Below, piece after piece: positions 19,243 to 48,353 of a DNA stretch of 64,000 bases (position 1 is its first letter; each line of letters starts with the position of its first letter). Below the pieces are notes generated by a model that saw only the letters and a list, made by a program, of their open reading frames with translations, did no database searches and was not told the origin of the DNA. Location: the NCBI GenBank assembly GCA_965203275.1, contig OZ241865.1, forward strand, positions 2,176,001 to 2,240,000, given 5' to 3'. The stretch comes from Bdellovibrionales bacterium (lineage in GTDB: Bacteria > Bdellovibrionota > Bdellovibrionia > Bdellovibrionales > JAUICD01). The position numbers were made by a program, and so were the translations under genes.

Positions 19243-19812
19243 GTTTCCTTAACATGGTATAAAGAAATGAAGGGATCCTTTTTCTGGGATCCGGCAGTCG
19301 GGCAAACCGGCAACAGAAGGAACTTTTTCCTTAACATTTCACTCAAAATGCATCATGCCTCTGGCATGTTTTTGGGCAATGACCGCAAAGGCTTTCGCCT
19401 TTGACAAAATGGTCATTGCCTCAAAAATCTATGCATTTTGAGTAGAGGAGGATCTCCTTGCTTCTGACACCATGTTAGGGAAAATTTCTTTTATTATCTC
19501 AGGAGCAAGCAGGCTACTTGTCAATCTGGGATCTGGGATCCGGGATCCGGCAGACAGGCATCAGAAAGAACTCTTTTTCCCTAACATGTAGTTAAGAGAC
19601 AAAGAGATTCTTCCTACTCAAAGTGAACAGGCTTTTGAGGGCATCAGGCAGAAAAGGCATTTTGTTTCCTTAACATGGTGTTAAGAGATGAGGAGATCCT
19701 CCCTACTAAAAGTAAACGGACTTTTGAGGTGATGACCATTTTATCGACGACGACAGTCGTCGTGGTCATCGCCCAAAAGCAACCAGAGGTTGGTTTACTT
19801 TTAGGGAAACAA
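19243..19812. repeat. Cluster 1 of the structured ~145-bp element (minus-strand unit 19341-19484, plus-strand unit 19663-19812, partial heads, GGGATCC heptamers)
   Basis: Shared CCTTAACATGGTGTTAA head and nested stems. Confidence 0.9.
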
Positions 19813-25311: not shown

Positions 25312-25668
25312 TTATTTATTGGATAGATGAGTTAATAACTCAAATATCTTATCAAGACGTTGATTGACGAGATCAAATCTTTGATTGGTTTGTTTTGCAT
25401 TGTCATCAATCTTTTGATTAAGTTCTTTTGCATTGTCATCAATTTTCTGATTAAGTGCCTTCATGTTGTCTTCTAGTCTTTTAATTTTATCTTCTAGTCC
25501 TCTAATTTTATCATCTAGCCCTCTAATTTGTGAAGGTAGATGATTATACAGCTGTAACTTAACACCTCCAGCTAAATAACATAAATAAAAAGCTGAAAAA
25601 AGAAGGAAAAGATGGATACTCTCTTTTGAAATAGTGAATAAAGACTCAAACCATTCTGGAAAACTCAT
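25312..25668 (-). CDS. Membrane-anchored coiled-coil protein (NHLPSQ family), copy a
   Basis: N-terminal TM, NHLPSQIRGL, heptad/hendecad repeats. Confidence 0.8.
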   Translation of the reverse strand: MSFPEWFESLFTISKESIHLFLLFSAFYLCYLAGGVKLQLYNHLPSQIRGLDDKIRGLEDKIKRLEDNMKALNQKIDDNAKELNQKIDDNAKQTNQRFDLVNQRLDKIFELLTHLSNK

Positions 25669-26033
25669 ATTTTAAAATCTCCTGTTTTTGTAAAGTGAAG
25701 AAAAGTTCATCCGTATTTATATGACTTTTATTTTATTATACCTTATTTAAGGGAAAAATCAACAGGTAGTGATAAATTATGATGCATTGTCGCAAATTGC
25801 CATAAAATCCATTAGATTGCTATTGTTCAGGACAGGAAAAGTATCTGAAATTGGCAAAAAGCACATTCTAAGGCTCATTTACCAACCAGGGCGATCACCA
25901 CCCACTTACACGAGCTCTTTAATCCAGAGAAGCTCCCACCATAAAGCAAATTAAAGTTGTGAAACGGATTAAGTTATTATAAAGCGTAATACCTTATCGC
26001 ATTTTGTTAAAAGTCTTATGGTTTAAAAAGAGA

Positions 26034-26465
26034 TTATTTATTTGGAAGATTAGTTAATAACTCAAATATCTTATCAAGACGTTGATTGACATGATCAAAT
26101 TTTTGATTGGTTTGTTTTGCATTGTCGTCAATTTTTTGATTGAGTTCCTTTGCATTGTTATCAATTTTTTGATTGAGCTCCTTTGCATTGTCGTCAACTT
26201 TCTTATCTAATGCCTGAATTTTATCTTCTAGTCTTTTAATGTTGTCATCAACTTTCTGATCCAGTGCCTTAATGTTGTCTTCTAGTCTTCTAATTTTATC
26301 TTCTAGTCCTCTAATTTGTGAGGGTAGATGATTGGTGACTTGTTCTTTAATCTCATTTTTAAAATCCTCGATCCTTTGTTCAATAGGTCTGATATAAAAT
26401 CTCACAATTCCAACTAAGCTACCAAAAAAAACCATGATAGTTACAAGTATTTGTAAAAGCTCCAT
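26034..26465 (-). CDS. Membrane-anchored coiled-coil protein (NHLPSQ family), copy b
   Basis: N-terminal TM, QVTNHLPSQ, KIDDNAKELNQ repeats. Confidence 0.8.
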   Translation of the reverse strand: MELLQILVTIMVFFGSLVGIVRFYIRPIEQRIEDFKNEIKEQVTNHLPSQIRGLEDKIRRLEDNIKALDQKVDDNIKRLEDKIQALDKKVDDNAKELNQKIDNNAKELNQKIDDNAKQTNQKFDHVNQRLDKIFELLTNLPNK

Positions 26466-31635: not shown

Positions 31636-32076
31636 ATGGAAGCTTTCATTGAAATACTTAATCAGCTAGATGCAATGACCATCTTAGCTATGTTTGGTAT
31701 AGGATATTTTTTTTATACTAAAATCACAAATGCTTTTAATGAACGAATCAACCAATCAGAGAATAACTTAAAGGAACAGATAAATAATTTAAGGGAATTG
31801 GTGAACAAATCAGAAAATAACTTAAGGGAATTGGTAAACCAATCAGAAAAGCACTTAAAGGAATATATAGATGCTAAAATGGAACCTATTCAAGAGCAGG
31901 TATACAATCATATACCTACACAGATGAAAGCCATGGAAGATAAGTTTGATCGAAGATTCGAAATTATGGAAGATAAGTTCGATCGAAAGTTCGATACATT
32001 GTATGGACTCATAGTCGATAAAGACAAAGATAAAGAGGTGAAAAAAGAACATACTAAAAAAGAAAAGCCCGTATGA
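31636..32076 (+). CDS. Array coiled-coil membrane protein 1 (146 aa)
   Basis: MEAFIEIL...TM...NHIPTQ...EDKFDRKF. Confidence 0.88.
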   Translation: MEAFIEILNQLDAMTILAMFGIGYFFYTKITNAFNERINQSENNLKEQINNLRELVNKSENNLRELVNQSEKHLKEYIDAKMEPIQEQVYNHIPTQMKAMEDKFDRRFEIMEDKFDRKFDTLYGLIVDKDKDKEVKKEHTKKEKPV

Positions 32077-32132
32077 TCATCCACATTGATTGGAAACCTT
32101 AACCCTCATAGTATGTTTCCAGTGTTTGTTGC

Positions 32133-32161
32133 TAGACGGGCCTTAGATTATGTTGTATAAT
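32133..32161 (+). promoter_or_regulatory. Putative sigma70 promoter TAGACG-17-TATAAT repeated in each array spacer
   Basis: -10 is TATAAT in the first three spacers and TATGAT in the last three; AAGGAGG RBS downstream. Confidence 0.55.
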
Positions 32162-32226
32162 GATGTACTGTTTAAATGCTTTGTTTTTTTATATTAATCA
32201 GGTGATGTATAACCAAGGAGGATATT

Positions 32227-32625
32227 ATGGAAGCTTTCATTGAAATACTTAATCAGCTAGATGCAATGACCATCTTAGCTATGTTTGGTATAGGATATTT
32301 TTTTTATACTAAAATCACAAATGCTTTTAATGAACGGATCAACCAATCAGAAAAGAACTTAAATGAGCGAATAAACCAATCAGAAAAGCACTTAAAGGAA
32401 TATATAGATGCTAAAATGGAACCTATTCAGGAGCAGGTATACAATCATATACCTACACAGATGAAAGCCATGGAAGATAAGTTTGATCGAAAGTTTGATT
32501 CGAAATTCGAAATTATGGAAGATAAGTTCGATCGAAAATTCGACACATTGTATGGACTTATAGTCAATAAAGACAAAGATAAAGAGGTGAAAAAAGAACA
32601 TACTAAAAAAGAAAAGCCCGTATGA
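32227..32625 (+). CDS. Array coiled-coil membrane protein 2 (132 aa)
   Basis: Paralogue of 31636-32076. Confidence 0.88.
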   Translation: MEAFIEILNQLDAMTILAMFGIGYFFYTKITNAFNERINQSEKNLNERINQSEKHLKEYIDAKMEPIQEQVYNHIPTQMKAMEDKFDRKFDSKFEIMEDKFDRKFDTLYGLIVNKDKDKEVKKEHTKKEKPV

Positions 32626-32776
32626 TCATCCACATTGATTGGAAACCTTAACCCTCATAGTATGTTTCCGGTGTTTGTTGCTAGACGGGCCTTAGATTAT
32701 GTTGTATAATGATATACTGTTTAAATGCTTTGTTTTTTTATATTAATCGGGTGATGGTATCACTAAGGAGGATATT

Positions 32777-33262
32777 ATGGAAGCTTTCATTGAAATACTT
32801 AATCAGCTAGATGCAATGACCATCTTAGCTATGTTTGGTATAGGATATTTTTTTTATACTAAAGTGACAAATTCTTTTAATGAACGGATCAACCAATCAG
32901 AAAATAACTTAAAGGAATGGGTAAATAAATCAGAAAATAACTTAAGGGAATTGGTGAACAAATCAGAAAATAACTTAAGGGAATTGGTAAACCAATCAGA
33001 AAAGAACTTAAATGAACGAATAAACCAATCAGAAAAGCACTTGAAACAATATATAGATGCTAAAATTGAACCTATTCAAGAGCAAGTAAACAATCATATA
33101 CCCACACAGATGAAAACCATGGAGGATAAGTTTGATCGAAGATTCGAAATTATGGAAGATAAGTTTGATCGAAAATTCGACACATTGTATGGACTTATAG
33201 TCAATAAAGACAAAGATAAAGAGGTGAAAAAAGAACATACTAAAAAAGAAAAGCCCTTATGA
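32777..33262 (+). CDS. Array coiled-coil membrane protein 3 (161 aa)
   Basis: Paralogue. Confidence 0.88.
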   Translation: MEAFIEILNQLDAMTILAMFGIGYFFYTKVTNSFNERINQSENNLKEWVNKSENNLRELVNKSENNLRELVNQSEKNLNERINQSEKHLKQYIDAKIEPIQEQVNNHIPTQMKTMEDKFDRRFEIMEDKFDRKFDTLYGLIVNKDKDKEVKKEHTKKEKPL

Positions 33263-33422
33263 TCATCTACATTGATTGGAAACTGTAACCCTATAGTATG
33301 TTTCTGGTGTTTGTTGCTAGACGGGTCTTAGATTATGTTGTATAATGATGTACTGTTTAAATGCTTTGTTTTTTTATATTATTTTATATTAATCGGGTGA
33401 TGGTATCACTAAGGAGGACATT

Positions 33423-33896
33423 ATGGAAGCTTTCATTGAAATACTTAATCAGCTAGATGCAATGACCATCTTAGCTATGTTTGGTATAGGATATTTTTTT
33501 TATACTAAAATCACAAATGCTTTTAATGAACGAATCAACCAATCAGAAAAGAACTTAAAGGAGTTGGTAAATAGCTTAAATGAGCGAATAAACCAATCAG
33601 AAAAGCACTTAAAGGAATATATAGATGCTAAAATGGAACCTATTCAAGAGCAGGTATACAATCATATACCTACACAGATGAAAGCCATGGAAGATAAGTT
33701 TGATCGAAAGTTCAACACCATAGAAGAGAAGTTTAATCGAAAGTTTGACACCATGGAGGATAAGTTTGATCGAAGATTCGAAATTATGGAAGATAAGTTT
33801 GATCGAAAATTCGACACATTGTATGGACTTATAGTCAATAAAGACAAAGATAAAGAGGTGAAAAAAGAACATACTAAAAAAGAAAAGCCCTTATGA
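33423..33896 (+). CDS. Array coiled-coil membrane protein 4 (157 aa)
   Basis: Paralogue. Confidence 0.88.
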   Translation: MEAFIEILNQLDAMTILAMFGIGYFFYTKITNAFNERINQSEKNLKELVNSLNERINQSEKHLKEYIDAKMEPIQEQVYNHIPTQMKAMEDKFDRKFNTIEEKFNRKFDTMEDKFDRRFEIMEDKFDRKFDTLYGLIVNKDKDKEVKKEHTKKEKPL

Positions 33897-34047
33897 TCAT
33901 CCACATTGATTGGAAACCTTAATCCTCATAGTATGTTTCCGGTGTTTGTTGCTAGACGGGCCTTAGATTATGTTGTATGATGATGTACTGTTTAAATGCT
34001 TTGTTTTTTTATATTAATCGGGTGATGGTATCACCAAGGAGGACATT

Positions 34048-34488
34048 ATGGAAGCTTTCATTGAAATACTTAATCAGCTAGATGCAATGACCATCTTAGC
34101 TATGTTTGGTATAGGATATTTTTTTTATACTAAAGTGACAAATGCTTTTAATGAACGGATCAACCAATCAGAAAAGAACTTAAAGGAGTTGGTAAATAGC
34201 TTAAATGAACGAATAAACCAATCAGAAAAGCACTTAAAGGAATATATAGATGCTAAAATGGAACCTATTCAGGAGCAGGTATACAATCATATACCTACAC
34301 AGATGAAAGCCATGGAAGATAAGTTTGATCGAAAGTTTGACACCATGGAAGAGAAGTTTGATCGAAGATTCGAAATTATGGAAGATAAGTTCGATCGAAA
34401 ATTCGACACATTGTATGGACTTATAGTCAATAAAGACAAAGATAAAGAGGTGAAAAAAGAACATACTAAAAAAGAAAAGCCCGTATGA
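34048..34488 (+). CDS. Array coiled-coil membrane protein 5 (146 aa)
   Basis: Paralogue. Confidence 0.88.
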   Translation: MEAFIEILNQLDAMTILAMFGIGYFFYTKVTNAFNERINQSEKNLKELVNSLNERINQSEKHLKEYIDAKMEPIQEQVYNHIPTQMKAMEDKFDRKFDTMEEKFDRRFEIMEDKFDRKFDTLYGLIVNKDKDKEVKKEHTKKEKPV

Positions 34489-34638
34489 TCATCCACATTG
34501 ATTGGAAACCTTAACCCTCATAGTATGTTTCCGGTGTTTGTTGCTAGACGGGCCTTAGATTATGTTGTATGATGATGTACTGTTTAAATGCTTTGTTTTT
34601 TTATATTAATCAGGTGATGTATAACCAAGGAGGATATT

Positions 34639-35157
34639 ATGGAAGCTTTCATTGAAATACTTAATCAGCTAGATGCAATGACCATCTTAGCTATGTTTGG
34701 TATAGGATATTTTTTTTATACTAAAATCACAAATGCTTTTAATGAACGAATCAACCAATCAGAAAATAATTTAAAGGAATGGGTAAATAAATCAGAAAAT
34801 AACTTAAGGGAATTGGTGAACAAATCAGAAAATAACTTAAGGGAATTGGTAAACCAATCAGAAAATAATTTAAGGGAATTGGTGAACAAATCAGAAAATA
34901 GCTTAAGGGAATTGGTGAACAAATCAGAAAATAGCTTAAAACAATATATAGATGCTAAAATTGAACCTATTCAAGAGCAAGTAAACAATCATATACCCAC
35001 ACAGATGAAAACCATGGAGGATAAGTTTGATCGAAAATTCGAAATTATGGAAGATAAGTTCGATCGAAAATTCGACACATTGTATGGACTTATAGTCAAT
35101 AAAGACAAAGATAAAGAGGTGAAAAAAGAACATACTAAAAAAGACAAGCCCTTATGA
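34639..35157 (+). CDS. Array coiled-coil membrane protein 6 (172 aa)
   Basis: Paralogue. Confidence 0.88.
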   Translation: MEAFIEILNQLDAMTILAMFGIGYFFYTKITNAFNERINQSENNLKEWVNKSENNLRELVNKSENNLRELVNQSENNLRELVNKSENSLRELVNKSENSLKQYIDAKIEPIQEQVNNHIPTQMKTMEDKFDRKFEIMEDKFDRKFDTLYGLIVNKDKDKEVKKEHTKKDKPL

Positions 35158-35308
35158 TCATCCACATTGATTGGAAACCTTAACCCTCATAGTATGTTTC
35201 CGGTGTTTGTTGCTAGACGGGCCTTAGATTATGTTGTATGATGATGTACTGTTTAAATGCTTTGTTTTTTTATATTAATCGGGTGATGGTATCACCAAGG
35301 AGGACATT

Positions 35309-35731
35309 ATGGAAGCTTTCATTGAAATACTTAATCAGCTAGATGCAATGACCATCTTAGCTATGTTTGGTATAGGATATTTTTTTTATACTAAAGTGAC
35401 AAATTCTTTTAATGAACGGATCAACCAATCAGAGAACAACTTAAAGGAATGGGTAAATAAATCAGAAAATAACTTAAGGGAACGAATCAACCAATCAGAA
35501 AAGCACTTAAAGGAATATATAGATGCTAAAATTGAACCTATTCAGGAGCAAGTATACAATCATATACCCACACAGATGAAAACCATGGAGGATAAGTTTG
35601 ATCGAAAGTTCGAAATTATGGAAGATAAGTTTGATCGAAAATTCGACACATTGTATGGACTTATAGTCAATAAAGACAAAGATAAAGAGGTGAAAAAAGA
35701 ACATACTAAAGATAAAGAAAAGCCCTTATGA
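35309..35731 (+). CDS. Array coiled-coil membrane protein 7 (140 aa)
   Basis: Paralogue. Confidence 0.88.
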   Translation: MEAFIEILNQLDAMTILAMFGIGYFFYTKVTNSFNERINQSENNLKEWVNKSENNLRERINQSEKHLKEYIDAKIEPIQEQVYNHIPTQMKTMEDKFDRKFEIMEDKFDRKFDTLYGLIVNKDKDKEVKKEHTKDKEKPL

Positions 35732-37753: not shown

Positions 37754-37986
37754 CTTTATTCCTTATTTTCTAATTTATTGAAAATTTCACTCAATATTAC
37801 TTCTAAAGAACATTCAAGAATAATGCCAAAGTTAAAAGCTTTGTAAAGTCTATAAAATAACTGTTGAAGGGTTATAGAGGTGACAAAAAACGTCTTATTT
37901 TGCCATTTTTTGTTTCTTTAAGGGGACATTTTGTTAGCTCTACAAAGGAATATATAAGTATTTTTGCCAAACGAACTGAATAAAAA

Positions 37987-38391
37987 TCCGGGATCCGGGA
38001 TCTGGCATCCGGGATCCGGCAACCCGGCAGTCAGGCATCCGAAAAACAAGCAAGGTGAAGCGAATATCTTGTTTCCTTAACATGGTGTCAAGAGAGGAAG
38101 GGATCCTTTCTACTAAAAGTAAACGGACTTTTGAGGCATTGCTCTTTTAATATAATTTTGAAAGCATTTTGTTTCCTTAACATGATGTTAAAAGAGGAAA
38201 GGATCCTTTCTACTAAAAGTGGTCAGGCTTTCTAGGTTGCCAGCAATTGAGAAGGCGATAGCCTTCGGCTGGCAACCAGAAAGTAGCCAGAGGCTATCGA
38301 CCACTTTTAGGGAAACAGAGGCTGGTTCAATTTTAGGGAAACAAACGTGGTCATCGCCAGAAAGTAGCCAGAGGCTAGACCACTTTTAGTG
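37987..38391 (+). repeat. Cluster 2 of the structured element (heptamers, partial unit, full unit 38171-38318, tail fragments)
   Basis: Same head and stems as clusters 1, 3 and 4. Confidence 0.9.
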
Positions 38392-38673
38392 AACCAAATG
38401 ATATTTTTGGAGTTGTTTTTGTAAGACAGTTCTCCAATAGAGAGGATGATAACCTAGCTTACTAGCAGCCATCTTGGCAAAATCTGGTGGAGGGAGTGCT
38501 TGTTCTTGCTCGATCATACTTAAGAAATCATTTGAAATGCCAAGCTTTTTAGCAAGTGCAGATGAAGATATTTGTTCGGACTTTCTCTCAGCCATTAAAA
38601 GATCACCAAATTTTAATGGGCCTAGTTTTTTTGCTAATATTTCTCTGGCTGTTTTATCATCTTTTTTTGTCAT
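38386..38673 (-). CDS. XRE-HTH antitoxin (HigA-like)
   Basis: GPLKFGDLL...LAKKLGISNDFLSMIE; ATGA overlap with the toxin gene. Confidence 0.75.
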   Translation of the reverse strand: MTKKDDKTAREILAKKLGPLKFGDLLMAERKSEQISSSALAKKLGISNDFLSMIEQEQALPPPDFAKMAASKLGYHPLYWRTVLQKQLQKYHLVH

Positions 38674-41682: not shown

Positions 41683-42518
41683 TTTCCTTAATATGTGGTT
41701 AAGAAGTGAGGAGATCCTTTTTCCGGGATCCGGGATGGCAGTCTGGGATCCGGCAACCCGGCATCAGGTCGAAAGGAAAAGGAACTTTTTCCTTAACATG
41801 GTGTTAAAAGAGGAAAGGATCCTTCCTACTAAAAGTAAACGGACTTTTGAGGTTGCCAGCCTTTGATCGACGGCGGTAGCCGTCGGGCTGGCTACCCAAA
41901 AGTGACCAGAGGTCAGTTTACTTTTAGTGAGACAAACCCTTAACATCATGTTAAGAGACGAGAGGATCCTCCTTACTAAAAATAAACGGATTTTTGAGGC
42001 ATTGCTCTTTTTAGACAGCGTAAGCTGTCAGAGCAATGCCCAAAAACAGCCAGAGGCTGGTTTATTTTTAGTGAGACAAACCCTTAACATGGTGTTAAAA
42101 GAGGAAAGGATCCTTCCTACTAAAAGTAAACGGACTTTTGAGGTTGCCAGCCTTTGATCGACGGCGGTAGCCGTCGGGCTGGCTACCCAAAAGTGACCAG
42201 AGGTCAGTTTACTTTTAGTGAGACAAACCCTTAACATCATGTTAAGAGACGAGAGGATCCTCCTTACTAAAAATAAACGGATTTTTGAGGCATTGCTCTT
42301 TTTAGACAGCGTAAGCTGTCAGAGCAATGCCCAAAAACAGCCAGAGGCTGGTTTATTTTTAGTGAGACAAACCCTTAACATGGTGTTAAAAGAGGAAAGG
42401 ATCCTTCCTACTAAAAGTAAACGGACTTTTGAGGTTGCCAGCCTTTGATCGACGGCGGTAGCCGTCGGGCTGGCTACCCAAAAGTGACCAGAGGTCAGTT
42501 TACTTTTAGTGAGACAAA
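41683..42518 (+). repeat. Cluster 3: A-B-A-B-A tandem array of the structured element (A 147 bp, B 144 bp, period 291 bp)
   Basis: Units start at 41791, 41938, 42082, 42229 and 42373; preceded by a partial head and GGGATCC heptamers. Confidence 0.95.
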
Positions 42519-42532
42519 AGAAGGATATTTTT

Positions 42533-44227
42533 ATGCGTAATATTTTCATCATTAGTTTAATCTTGAGTTTTTTTATTGTAGGTTGTGGCAATGATTCACA
42601 AAAGCCACAAGCTCCCTCTACTCCAAAAGATAACTCACTGGATACCACTAATGAAAATGCTACTGACAATGATACAGGGGATCAAACAGAGTCATCTGAT
42701 CAACTTAGCGAAAATATTATTCATGTAAATGAGGCACTAAGAAATTTACAATCACAAGAAGAAAATCAAACTTCAGATGCTACAAGTGACTCTCCTCCTC
42801 TTAAAGTTACAATCACCCCACCAATAGAACCTCCCTCTAATTCTGATACAGTTACTACTAATCCAATAACTGCAACACCGACTGAAATAACTGCTGATAT
42901 GACTAATGATATGACAAATGACACCACTACCGACATCATTGCTAATGATGTCGGTAATAGTGTCGGTAATAATGTCGGTAATAGTGTCGGTAATAATGTC
43001 GGTAATGGTGTCGGTAATAATGTCGGTAATAGTGTCGGTAATAGTGTCGGTAATAGTGTCGGTAATAATGTCGGTAATAATGTCGGTAATGATGTCGGTA
43101 ATGATGTCGGTAATGGTGTCGGTAATGATGTCGGTAATAGTGTCGGTAATGATGTCGGTAATAATGTCGGTAATGATGTCGGTAATGATGTCGGTAATGA
43201 TGTCGGTAATGATGTTGGTAGTGTAGCCACTGATACTAATAATTCTGATGTGAGTTATTCTTCTCCCTTATTTATAGAAACAATTGAAACCTTTCATCAA
43301 CTCTTAACACTTTTGATTTTGAATAACTTAGGACTTCAAGATCAAGATATTGCAAATACAAATATCACATCTACCATAAAAATCGACACTTTAAATGAAA
43401 TGTCGATTTTTCTAAATAGTGTAAGAAATCAGCGATTAAAAAATATAATAAAGCAAGAGATCATTGATACAGATGTTTTAATATTCACTATAACTAGATT
43501 AGAGCAAGAAAAAAACCACACTTTTGCTCCATTATGGTTAGAACAAATCAACGAAACACTTAAAGAAATAATTATTTCTGTGGATACTTTAAATGACATA
43601 GGAGTTTCAATAGAAGGGATTTCAAATTATTCGGAACAATTATTTAATACAAACTCTCTTAATACAAACCCTCGTTTTATAGAAATCGTTGATCATCTAC
43701 AAACAAATAAAACAAAGCTAAATGAGATTGTAAATATAGTCATTTCTGGAGACTTTAGAAGCATTGACCCTACAAATATAAAATCTTTTTTATTTAATGA
43801 AACAATACAAACTCTTAGTGAACTCCTTGCCCTTGAAGACACTATAGAAGAAATCATCATCATTCAAAGTGAAAATGAATTAAAAGAAATCATTGGTGAA
43901 CTTGATAGACAAGAGGGTCCCTATAATGACTTATGGCTATCAGAAATCAATGAATTATTAAAAGCTATCATTGATAATACAAATGATCGTAGGGAAGCAC
44001 TTGCTCAGCTAGAAGAAACAGGTGAAGAAACTACTTTTTTCAAAGTTATAACTCTGATGAAAAGATTTATAGGCTTAAGTCCACAATATGAAATTGATAG
44101 GAAATTGCTAATCAGGAAGTTAGATCGCATCACAGAGGGCATACTATCTGGAGCATTTCAAACACAAAACCCTAAAGATTATCAATTATACGATAACATT
44201 GATCAGAACCTACCCTTCCCTTTGTAG
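42533..44227 (+). CDS. Lipoprotein with (N-x-V-G)n tetrapeptide repeat
   Basis: ATG 42533 [18 protein letters not shown] lipobox; low-complexity N-half, helical C-half. Confidence 0.8.
42944..43219 (+). repeat. 23 x 12-bp coding minisatellite AATRRTGTCGGT
   Basis: Directly visible. Confidence 0.95.
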
Positions 44228-47910: not shown

Positions 47911-48347
47911 ATTAGCATGGTGTTGATCTGGTCTCCGGGATCAGGCAACCCGCCATCAAGTAGACAGGCAAGGATGAAGCGAATATCTTGTTTCCTTAAC
48001 ATGTAGTCAAAAAACGAAAAGATCCTCCTCTACTCAAAATGAGCAGTTTTTTGCGGCATTGCTCTTTTTAGACAGCGTAAGCTGTCAGAGCAATGCCTCA
48101 AAAATCCGCTCATTTTGAGTAGGCAGAATATCCTTCTCCCTTAACACCATGTTAAGGAAACAGTGCTTTTATTGCCTTAAAAGCAAGCACTCTGCAAATG
48201 AAACTCTTTTTCCTTAACATCATGTTAAAAGAGGAAAGGATCCTTTCTACTAAAAGTGGTCAGGCTTTCTAGGTTGCCAGCATTTAAGAAGGCGGTAGCC
48301 TTCGGCTGGCAACCAGAAAGTAGCCAGAGGCTAGACCACTTTTAGTG
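47911..48347. repeat. Cluster 4 of the structured element (head-to-head palindromic dimer 47990-48162, full unit 48207-48347)
   Basis: TTTCCTTAACATG...CATGTTAAGGAAA inverted ends; same stems. Confidence 0.9.
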
Positions 48348-48353
48348 AAATAG

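Follow-up and report, generated by a model that had tools for sequence, protein, structure and literature searches.

For most families of structured extragenic repeats outside the REP-RAYT system, we know of no mover. The small dispersed repeats (SDR) of the Nostocaceae, which Elhai et al. are said to have described in 2008, are short gene-less repeats that nest in hairpins and in one another, cause no target duplication and have no known enzyme; heptamer tandem repeats are also found in the genomes that bear them. In integron attC sites, the recombination site is a folded single strand, and it is the structure that is conserved rather than the sequence. Repetitive extragenic palindromic (REP) sequences, together with BIME and REPIN, are mobilised in Pseudomonas and the enterobacteria by RAYT (TnpA-REP), a Y1 HUH enzyme (outlined in parts of PMC3116915, PMC3337134 and PMC3733652), and one end of a REP unit bears a GTAG or CGTC tag (according to a passage of PMC3733652). 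The gene-less derivatives of IS200/IS605 (PATEs) and the palindrome-targeting IS1111/IS110 elements, treated in part of PMC12288879, provide further comparison systems. Here we consider a repeat found as an array of five units at positions 41791-42518 of a 64-kb stretch of DNA from a Bdellovibrionales bacterium (positions 2,176,001 to 2,240,000 of contig OZ241865.1, assembly GCA_965203275.1), the whole of which is called the window. The array consists of copies of a gene-less, lineage-restricted repeat, and this repeat is probably a selfish, non-autonomous mobile element whose Y-shaped fold would be recognised by an enzyme.

The repeat is real, very abundant and extragenic, and it is a DNA repeat that conserves its fold. 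An initial annotation of the window had reported the five units of the array and a set of diverged copies elsewhere, and Tandem Repeats Finder (TRF) and nhmmer recovered every one of them. The array has a period of 144 bp (5.0 copies, 75% matches) and a second period of 291 bp (2.5 copies, 100% matches), the latter showing that its five units are two distinct sequences in the order A-B-A-B-A. All five are full units arranged head-to-tail on the forward strand, at 41790-41933, 41938-42077, 42082-42224, 42229-42368 and 42373-42515, as judged by nhmmer, TRF and their folds. Across the closed genome to which the window belongs (G000; 2,567,810 bp, 35% G+C), an nhmmer profile built from seven window copies gave 1,361 raw matches, or 1,293 once reverse-strand shadows were removed, with 735 at full length; the repeat covers 149,009 bp, which is 5.8% of the genome. 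Just 5 of the raw matches lie mostly within ORFs of at least 100 aa. By intergenic class, full copies stand at 77/289 for convergent, 80/315 for divergent and 166/988 for tandem gene pairs. Relative to genes they are evenly oriented (100 same and 78 opposite in ++ intergenic regions, 103 and 103 in -- regions), and in each of the 16 genome bins forward and reverse copies balance, with no bias between genome halves; GC skew is weak.

Copies occur in both orientations as solitary units, as tandem arrays and as nested pieces. Arrays elsewhere in the genome show several exact periods (144-148, 157-159 and 181-187), 26 copies are double-headed, and 596 matches are partial, most of them truncated at the 3' or the 5' end. 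Identical cores were found in 33 sets at sites more than 5 kb apart, from which we conclude that the family is recent. The repeat family breaks short-read assemblies of this lineage: assembly contigs from four runs over 14 kb break at every repeat cluster, and over those 14 kb they yielded no usable insertion polymorphism and no transcript ends.

Each unit, 141-165 nt in length, begins with a head hairpin and a GGATCC palindrome, followed by a three-way junction in which stems 2 and 3 and an apical c-GNNA-g hairpin are enclosed by an outer stem, with a CCAGAGG side hairpin in addition; with five co-varying helices, this is an unusually large and elaborate repeat. The stem pairs and loops quoted in the initial annotation can all be read in the window sequence. 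Unit A folds as DNA at -43 kcal/mol (z = -8.77, equalled by 0 of 200 shuffles) and as RNA at -70.6 kcal/mol (z = -8.13). Among six window copies, 26 of the 52 consensus pairs show a double change that keeps the pairing. When 683 distinct copies were aligned with an HMM, blind to structure, the paired cells comprised 20,194 Watson-Crick, 948 G.T/T.G and 159 A.C/C.A combinations and 399 other mismatches, and at many pairs two or three combinations occur (such as GC 350, CG 215, TA 90). A covariance model made from the six window copies was matched 246 times over 400 kb of genome sequence, and covariation statistics were calculated on the best 150 of these (143 distinct). In those 143 distinct copies, 95.5% of cells were paired versus 82.9% in shuffles, and the covariation score was 0.391 versus 0.153 in shuffles, a value that 0 of 500 shuffles reached; with slid partners it fell to 0.05-0.07. 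Pairing reaches 99.2-99.8% across the four body helices, where 27 of 41 pairs have changes in both partners. The covariance-model alignment is fitted to the model structure and hence leans towards it, but the HMM alignment, which has no such lean, agrees; both bear out the earlier proposal that the fold is kept while the sequence changes.

Helix alleles are discrete, with some 6-10 common ones per helix, and they are partly shuffled between copies as a mosaic. Paired arms share normalised mutual information of 0.92 in the apical hairpin, 0.81 in stem 2, 0.79 in stem 3 and 0.69 in the outer stem. The outer arms lie about 80 nt apart, whereas the 5' arms of the outer and apical helices, only about 30 nt apart, reach 0.35; distant paired arms are thus more strongly associated than nearby unpaired ones, and the coupling follows pairing rather than distance. 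Pairing is weaker in the head hairpin (87.8%) and in the GGATCC palindrome, which at 73.3% is the least paired and the most variable of all. This last observation bears on a reading of the repeat as BIME-like sites bound in duplex form by nucleoid, gyrase or restriction-modification proteins, with GGATCC and the head as the bound sequences. The element is extragenic, and it conserves both the GATCC core and the head motif TCCTTAACAT, as such sites would; but duplex binding has no need for arms that co-vary over 80 nt or for fixed hairpin loops, nor would one expect the palindrome itself to be the poorest helix, and we regard this reading as very improbable indeed.

The loops distinguish one strand from the other. 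The apical tetraloop is GNNA in 608 of 649 copies (94%) and GNRA in 382 (59%), with a C-G closing pair; 226 of the 608 GNNA loops carry a pyrimidine at position 3, and the reverse-complement loop is seen in about 20 copies. CCAGAGG is the side-loop sequence of 705 of 765 copies, and the outer stem is closed by a T.G pair in 652 of 683. At other pairs, 296 G.T/T.G cells stand against 141 A.C/C.A cells, roughly two to one. A stable DNA tetraloop motif is known under the name d(cGNNAg) (Nakano et al. 2002, as cited in a passage of PMC3201870). Taken together, these features suggest that it is the forward strand that folds, and that it folds as DNA rather than RNA. If it were instead a multicopy structured RNA, whether a non-coding RNA or an element within mRNAs acting through its fold, for example in mRNA decay, then the strong fold conservation, the RNA folding z-score, the GNRA share and an excess of G.U of about twice A.C would all be expected, and the last two count against a DNA element in so far as they would suit RNA too. 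In the related genome G004, moreover, a ribosomal-protein operon contains units in sense orientation. We nevertheless consider an RNA quite improbable, because the copies show no orientation preference relative to genes, have no conserved promoter-like flank (upstream are variable leaders or heptamer stretches), include hundreds of truncated, nested and double-headed forms, and accept position-3 pyrimidines in more than a third of their GNNA loops. The initial annotation did not recognise the repeat as a known RNA family, and Rfam agrees: there were 0 matches at the gathering score on the window, and at E <=10 only hairpin noise, the best at 23.9 bits versus a gathering score of 211.

The ends of the unit are defined. 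Among identical cores, similarity ceases a few bases past GTGAAAC on the 3' side, the unit finishing with TTTTAGTGAAAC; on the 5' side the boundary lies 12-30 nt upstream of TCCTTAACAT, within a leader whose last bases are ...CTTTT or ...CTTGTT and which, in the predicted fold, contributes to an extended head hairpin. In the typical copy, only one end bears a head. Upstream of the head, on the same strand, there is often a stretch of heptamer repeats (H7; GGGATCC/CCGGCAN): this is so for 218 of 1,029 heads, whereas opposite-strand stretches number 33 and downstream ones 46, and 34 were found among 5,000 random 80-mers. Of 499 clusters, 257 have an H7 stretch within or next to them, and these 257 include all five clusters of the window.

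Nesting is common. In 32 places a full copy lies between two older pieces, a 5' one before it and a 3' one after it, with break points near helix boundaries and loops; where checked, the outer-stem alleles of the two pieces match, which identifies them as the halves of a single older copy. After 111-114 of 740 full copies there is a second tail whose start falls exactly on the AGAGG of the side loop.

A comparison of filled and empty sites was possible in a 101-aa four-helix-bundle gene (PF05635, 55.7 bits; TIGR02436, 58.9 bits), of which there are nine near-identical intact copies and five more that are each interrupted at TCTCTAA^GAGA. The intact gene reads TCTCTAA-GAGA-AGTTCAGGC at this point, and the target (TCTC-TAA-GAGA) is a small hairpin in its own right. 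The gene copy at genome position 2497927 carries an insert of 165 nt, consisting of a 20-nt leader and a unit, that replaces GAGA, after which the gene resumes for 134 nt; at this one clean site there is no target duplication, and 4 nt have been replaced. The five interrupted genes share one common leader and differ in their helix alleles. One site may have been hit repeatedly. A flank-based automatic search for filled and empty sites mostly recovered differences in tandem-array copy number. Between genomes, a 43-nt gap between two ribosomal-protein genes in G000 holds three units in G004.

These joints also bear on whether the repeat might be passive palindromic DNA, multiplied without a dedicated enzyme by slippage, unequal crossing-over and template switching, with quasi-palindrome conversion as the source of its paired changes. 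The several exact periods of the tandem arrays, the mosaic of helix alleles, the heterogeneous junctions with their losses and duplications, and the different bodies on one target and leader in the interrupted genes would all be understandable on this basis, as would the failure of the Y1_Tnp, RVT_1 and IS110 searches of G000 to find a transposase. Yet new joints always have leader and head at the 5' end and GTGAAAC at the 3' end, which homologous switching would not produce; identical cores recur at the 33 distant site sets; one insertion lies in unrelated coding DNA; and neither the asymmetric GNNA and CCAGAGG loops nor the excess of G.T over A.C is expected from templated correction. Because these asymmetric loops are conserved, the fold itself appears to be constrained, though intra-palindrome conversion may make paired changes. 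We therefore take passive multiplication to be unlikely, while still giving it serious weight.

As a mobile element, the repeat would present its Y-shaped fold, single-stranded or as a cruciform, for recognition by an enzyme; insertion would be aimed at the hairpin loops of unwound DNA, the fold would be kept as the substrate, and helices would be exchanged between copies by recombination. Several observations weigh against such an element. No enzyme was found, so that the case for its mobility is an anatomical one. The junctions of the 32 nested cases are uneven: the older copy resumes within 6 positions in 13, at least 8 positions are lost in 10, and at least 20 positions, amounting to a whole hairpin on both sides, are repeated in 9. 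This unevenness also fits break-and-repair or template switching, and is not what a precise transposase would leave. Many joints are repeated copies of one composite and need not be independent events; the copies share descent, and the cell counts given above overstate the number of independent compensatory events. The five interrupted genes may, more simply, go back to one event followed by exchange between copies. Finally, the two strands fold nearly alike, the forward strand being favoured in 187 of 250 copies when DNA parameters are used and in 161 of 250 under RNA parameters, by a margin of about 1 kcal/mol, and the choice of folding strand is therefore drawn mainly from the loops. The strand-specific fold of the initial annotation is thus supported by some features, namely the GNNA and CCAGAGG loops, the T.G pair and the wobble excess, and not by strand stability.

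That annotation had also suggested a REP/REPIN-like single-stranded substrate for an unlinked HUH nuclease. The likeness holds in part: the repeat, too, is extragenic, non-coding, hairpin-forming and present in very high copy number and in both orientations; it is lineage-restricted, forms mosaic clusters with other short modules, and keeps its pairing under sequence drift. The proposed partner could not be found. The closed genome has 0 matches to Y1_Tnp (PF01797; 6 candidates scored), the control search being positive in 6 of 14 genomes, and 0 matches each to RVT_1 and IS110, so that neither an HUH nor a reverse transcriptase gene was detected by these models in G000; Y1_Tnp matches in its relatives number 1 in G001, 3 in G002 and 0 in G003 and G004. 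The behaviour of the repeat is REP/REPIN-like, yet the tests for membership failed, since there is no RAYT and the architecture differs: a three-way junction of 141-165 nt takes the place of a 20-40-nt palindrome or inverted REP pair, copies nest in loops, and the 5' partner is an oriented heptamer stretch.

Comparison with the other systems gave similarly mixed results. With the SDR of the Nostocaceae, the repeat shares the lack of genes, of target duplication and of any known enzyme, the nesting in hairpins and of copies in one another, and the presence of heptamer repeats alongside; sequence, size, fold and phylum set it apart from the SDR as described. Like the PATEs and IS1111/IS110 it has hairpin ends, palindromic targets and no target duplication, but unlike them it lives in a genome without Y1 or IS110, in which the sole TnpB-type zinc ribbon match falls in a Cas12-like ORF of 1,365 aa, and its orientation is not biased by genome half. 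Structure is retained over sequence, as in integron attC sites; however, units abut without ORF cassettes, the copy number is far higher than in an attC array, and G004 gives no tyrosine recombinase match (Phage_integrase matches: G000 2, G001 2, G004 0). In contrast to a MITE of the DDE type, it has a head at one end only and, at the one clean site, no target duplication. Comparison was also made with the 23S rRNA intervening sequences that carry a PF05635 gene and lie in a helix tip of that rRNA: the single 23S gene (G000:C1 972841-975857) holds no unit match and measures 3,017 nt against 2,925 model positions, the first ~650 positions showing tip expansions of 17, 27 and 21 nt only. A literature search found no paper that pairs Bdellovibrionales with REP, REPIN or MITE, nor one describing this repeat.

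The repeat is narrowly distributed. When related genomes were scanned, as the initial annotation had advised, 3 of the 151 sampled from the order gave matches to the covariance model, and phage and plasmid collections searched with the AB dimer gave no match. In a sequence-pattern scan of genome contigs, 23 of 25 stretches among the matches listed came from one Bdellovibrionales metagenome-assembled genome; the others were single ones in Escherichia albertii and a Bacillus, which were taken for chance. Across the five genomes of the family, units are present in G000, G001 and G004 and absent from G002 and G003. In G004 they are confined to three small contigs (C1, C4 and C11; 12-52 kb). Genes on these unit-bearing contigs are 70-78% identical to G000, and sampled loci on large contigs 67-70%. 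The unit-bearing contigs could be the result of mis-binning, or they could reflect a real difference.

From the searches described above we infer a mover other than a RAYT/IS200-type HUH enzyme, and the genes that neighbour the units were considered as candidates. A unit lies within 300 bp of 19 of 19 Transposase_31 genes, 16 of 16 PDDEXK_2 genes (assigned to the Rpn family by NCBIfam), 11 of 11 genes for a helix-turn-helix (HTH)-repeat protein and 9 of 9 four-helix-bundle genes, compared with 30% of all genes. Rpn-family PD-(D/E)XK nucleases may be candidate movers: there are 35 such genes in G000, each less than 300 bp from a unit, and PDDEXK_2 matches (G000 14, G001 5, G004 1, G002 0, G003 0) track the units in their presence. 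This partnership is weakened by the sole G004 locus and one G001 locus, which have no unit within 2.5 kb. Transposase_31 (G000 16, G001 19, G004 1, G002 0, G003 16) does not track the units and was set aside as a partner, with 16 matches in the unit-free G003 and 1 in G004. The full proposal of structure-guided transposition, in which a Y-shaped single-stranded DNA would be pasted into hairpin loops by a non-HUH enzyme, with an Rpn-family PD-(D/E)XK protein as the candidate, is in our view rather improbable as it stands. If it were true, the Rpn-family 'putative transposases', at present orphan nucleases, would gain their first natural substrate. The host is a small, closed genome without any enzyme known to move such repeats, and this, together with the large size, recent spread, defined ends and preference for hairpin loops of the repeat, makes it a tractable case in which to look for a new DNA-structure-specific recombination activity. 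The repeat also raises the question of how a host-associated bacterium tolerates 6% of selfish hairpin DNA.

The four-helix-bundle gene was rejected as a partner and ranked as a neighbour cassette. Matches to PF05635 do track the units (G000 14, G001 19, G004 19, G002 0, G003 0), and in G000 a unit in the same orientation lies 69-105 bp downstream in 8 of 9 near-identical copies, but the sampled G004 loci have no units (0 of 10, within ~1 kb), and in G001 6 of 10 loci have one nearby, in mixed orientation. A cassette of this gene with upstream heptamer repeats is conserved in G000, G001 and G004. At G000:C1 2111684-2112229 and eight near-identical loci, all outside the window, it comprises, in order, heptamer repeats, a promoter-like stretch, an inverted repeat that would overlie the ribosome-binding site, the 101-aa gene and heptamer repeats. 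PF05635 resembles Avd, an accessory protein of diversity-generating retroelements (DGR), according to a passage of PMC10053308, and a literature search for PF05635/S23 proteins with repeats found only this Avd/DGR link.

The HTH-repeat protein was likewise rejected as mover, as it consists of tandem winged-helix-like repeats in which no transposase domain was found. Its genes, at G000:C1 2512136-2514877 and 10 paralogous loci, encode proteins of 270-914 aa that start like a signal peptide and contain as many as about ten helix-turn-helix-like repeats of ~60 aa in tandem. Multi-copy proteins of 556, 172 and 333 aa had no match in Pfam or NCBIfam. Expanded families in G000 include 19 Transposase_31 and 16 PDDEXK_2 ORFs (Rpn-like) and 31 ankyrin-repeat genes, and there are 9 IS256-type (Transposase_mut) genes of equal length. 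In G001, a stretch of 60 kb (G001:C1 2740000-2800000) is dense in Transposase_31 and PDDEXK_2 genes and fragments, and the sole two units within it abut PDDEXK_2 fragments with stop codons.

Within the window, H7 stretches, leaders and orphan heads were read directly from the sequence. The array is preceded on the forward strand (region 41684-41789) by an orphan head-like hairpin with GGATCC at ~41684-41717, an H7 stretch at ~41724-41768 and a leader ending in ...AGGAACTTTT that abuts the first unit. A second region, 19247-19335 (+), has an orphan head with GGATCC at 19247-19279, then an H7-like stretch (~19284-19316) followed by a leader and half head. The half head TCCTTAACAT at 19329-19338 abuts a full reverse-strand copy with the ATGCAT outer-stem allele and a GAAA loop (19336-19481; nhmmer E 4.6e-31), and the composite of the two occurs a second time at genome position 1404037. 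Next come an H7 stretch at ~19527-19563 and a leader (region 19527-19645, +), a 3'-truncated copy covering model positions 1-68 (19578-19645, +) and a full copy with a GACA loop (19667-19810, +; E 9.9e-38). A further cluster opens with an H7 stretch at 37986-38041, for which TRF gives a period of 7/14, and a leader (region 37986-38150, +), and continues with a 3'-truncated copy covering model positions 1-77 (38074-38150, +), a full copy with a GATA loop (38174-38316, +; E 1.1e-37) and two stacked 5'-truncated tails on the same strand, one running from AGAGG to GGGAAAC (38318-38343) and the other covering model positions 94-141 (38347-38395). Both truncated copies and the pair of tails, detected by nhmmer, are additions to the copies in the initial annotation. 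In the last cluster, a degenerate H7-like stretch and a leader (...GCGAATATCTTGTT) at 47929-47992 (+) are followed by a double-headed copy at 47993-48158 (+), which has an inverted head at its 3' end and was matched by nhmmer on two strands (47993-48123, +; 48031-48158, -), and by a full copy with a GGTA loop (48211-48351, +; E 3.7e-39). The double-headed copy is what had been noted as a dimer near 47990 without a side hairpin, and the side hairpin is indeed missing from it.

Other repeats in the window are found in coding DNA. The ORF directly after the array (42509-44227) has a lipoprotein-like signal at its start and contains 23 copies of a 12-bp unit (42943-43220, 92% matches). At 25372-26317 and 31777-35516 there are many tandem repeats of 33 bp (11 codons) and 21 bp within long ORFs, which suggests that large coiled-coil or repeat proteins are encoded there.

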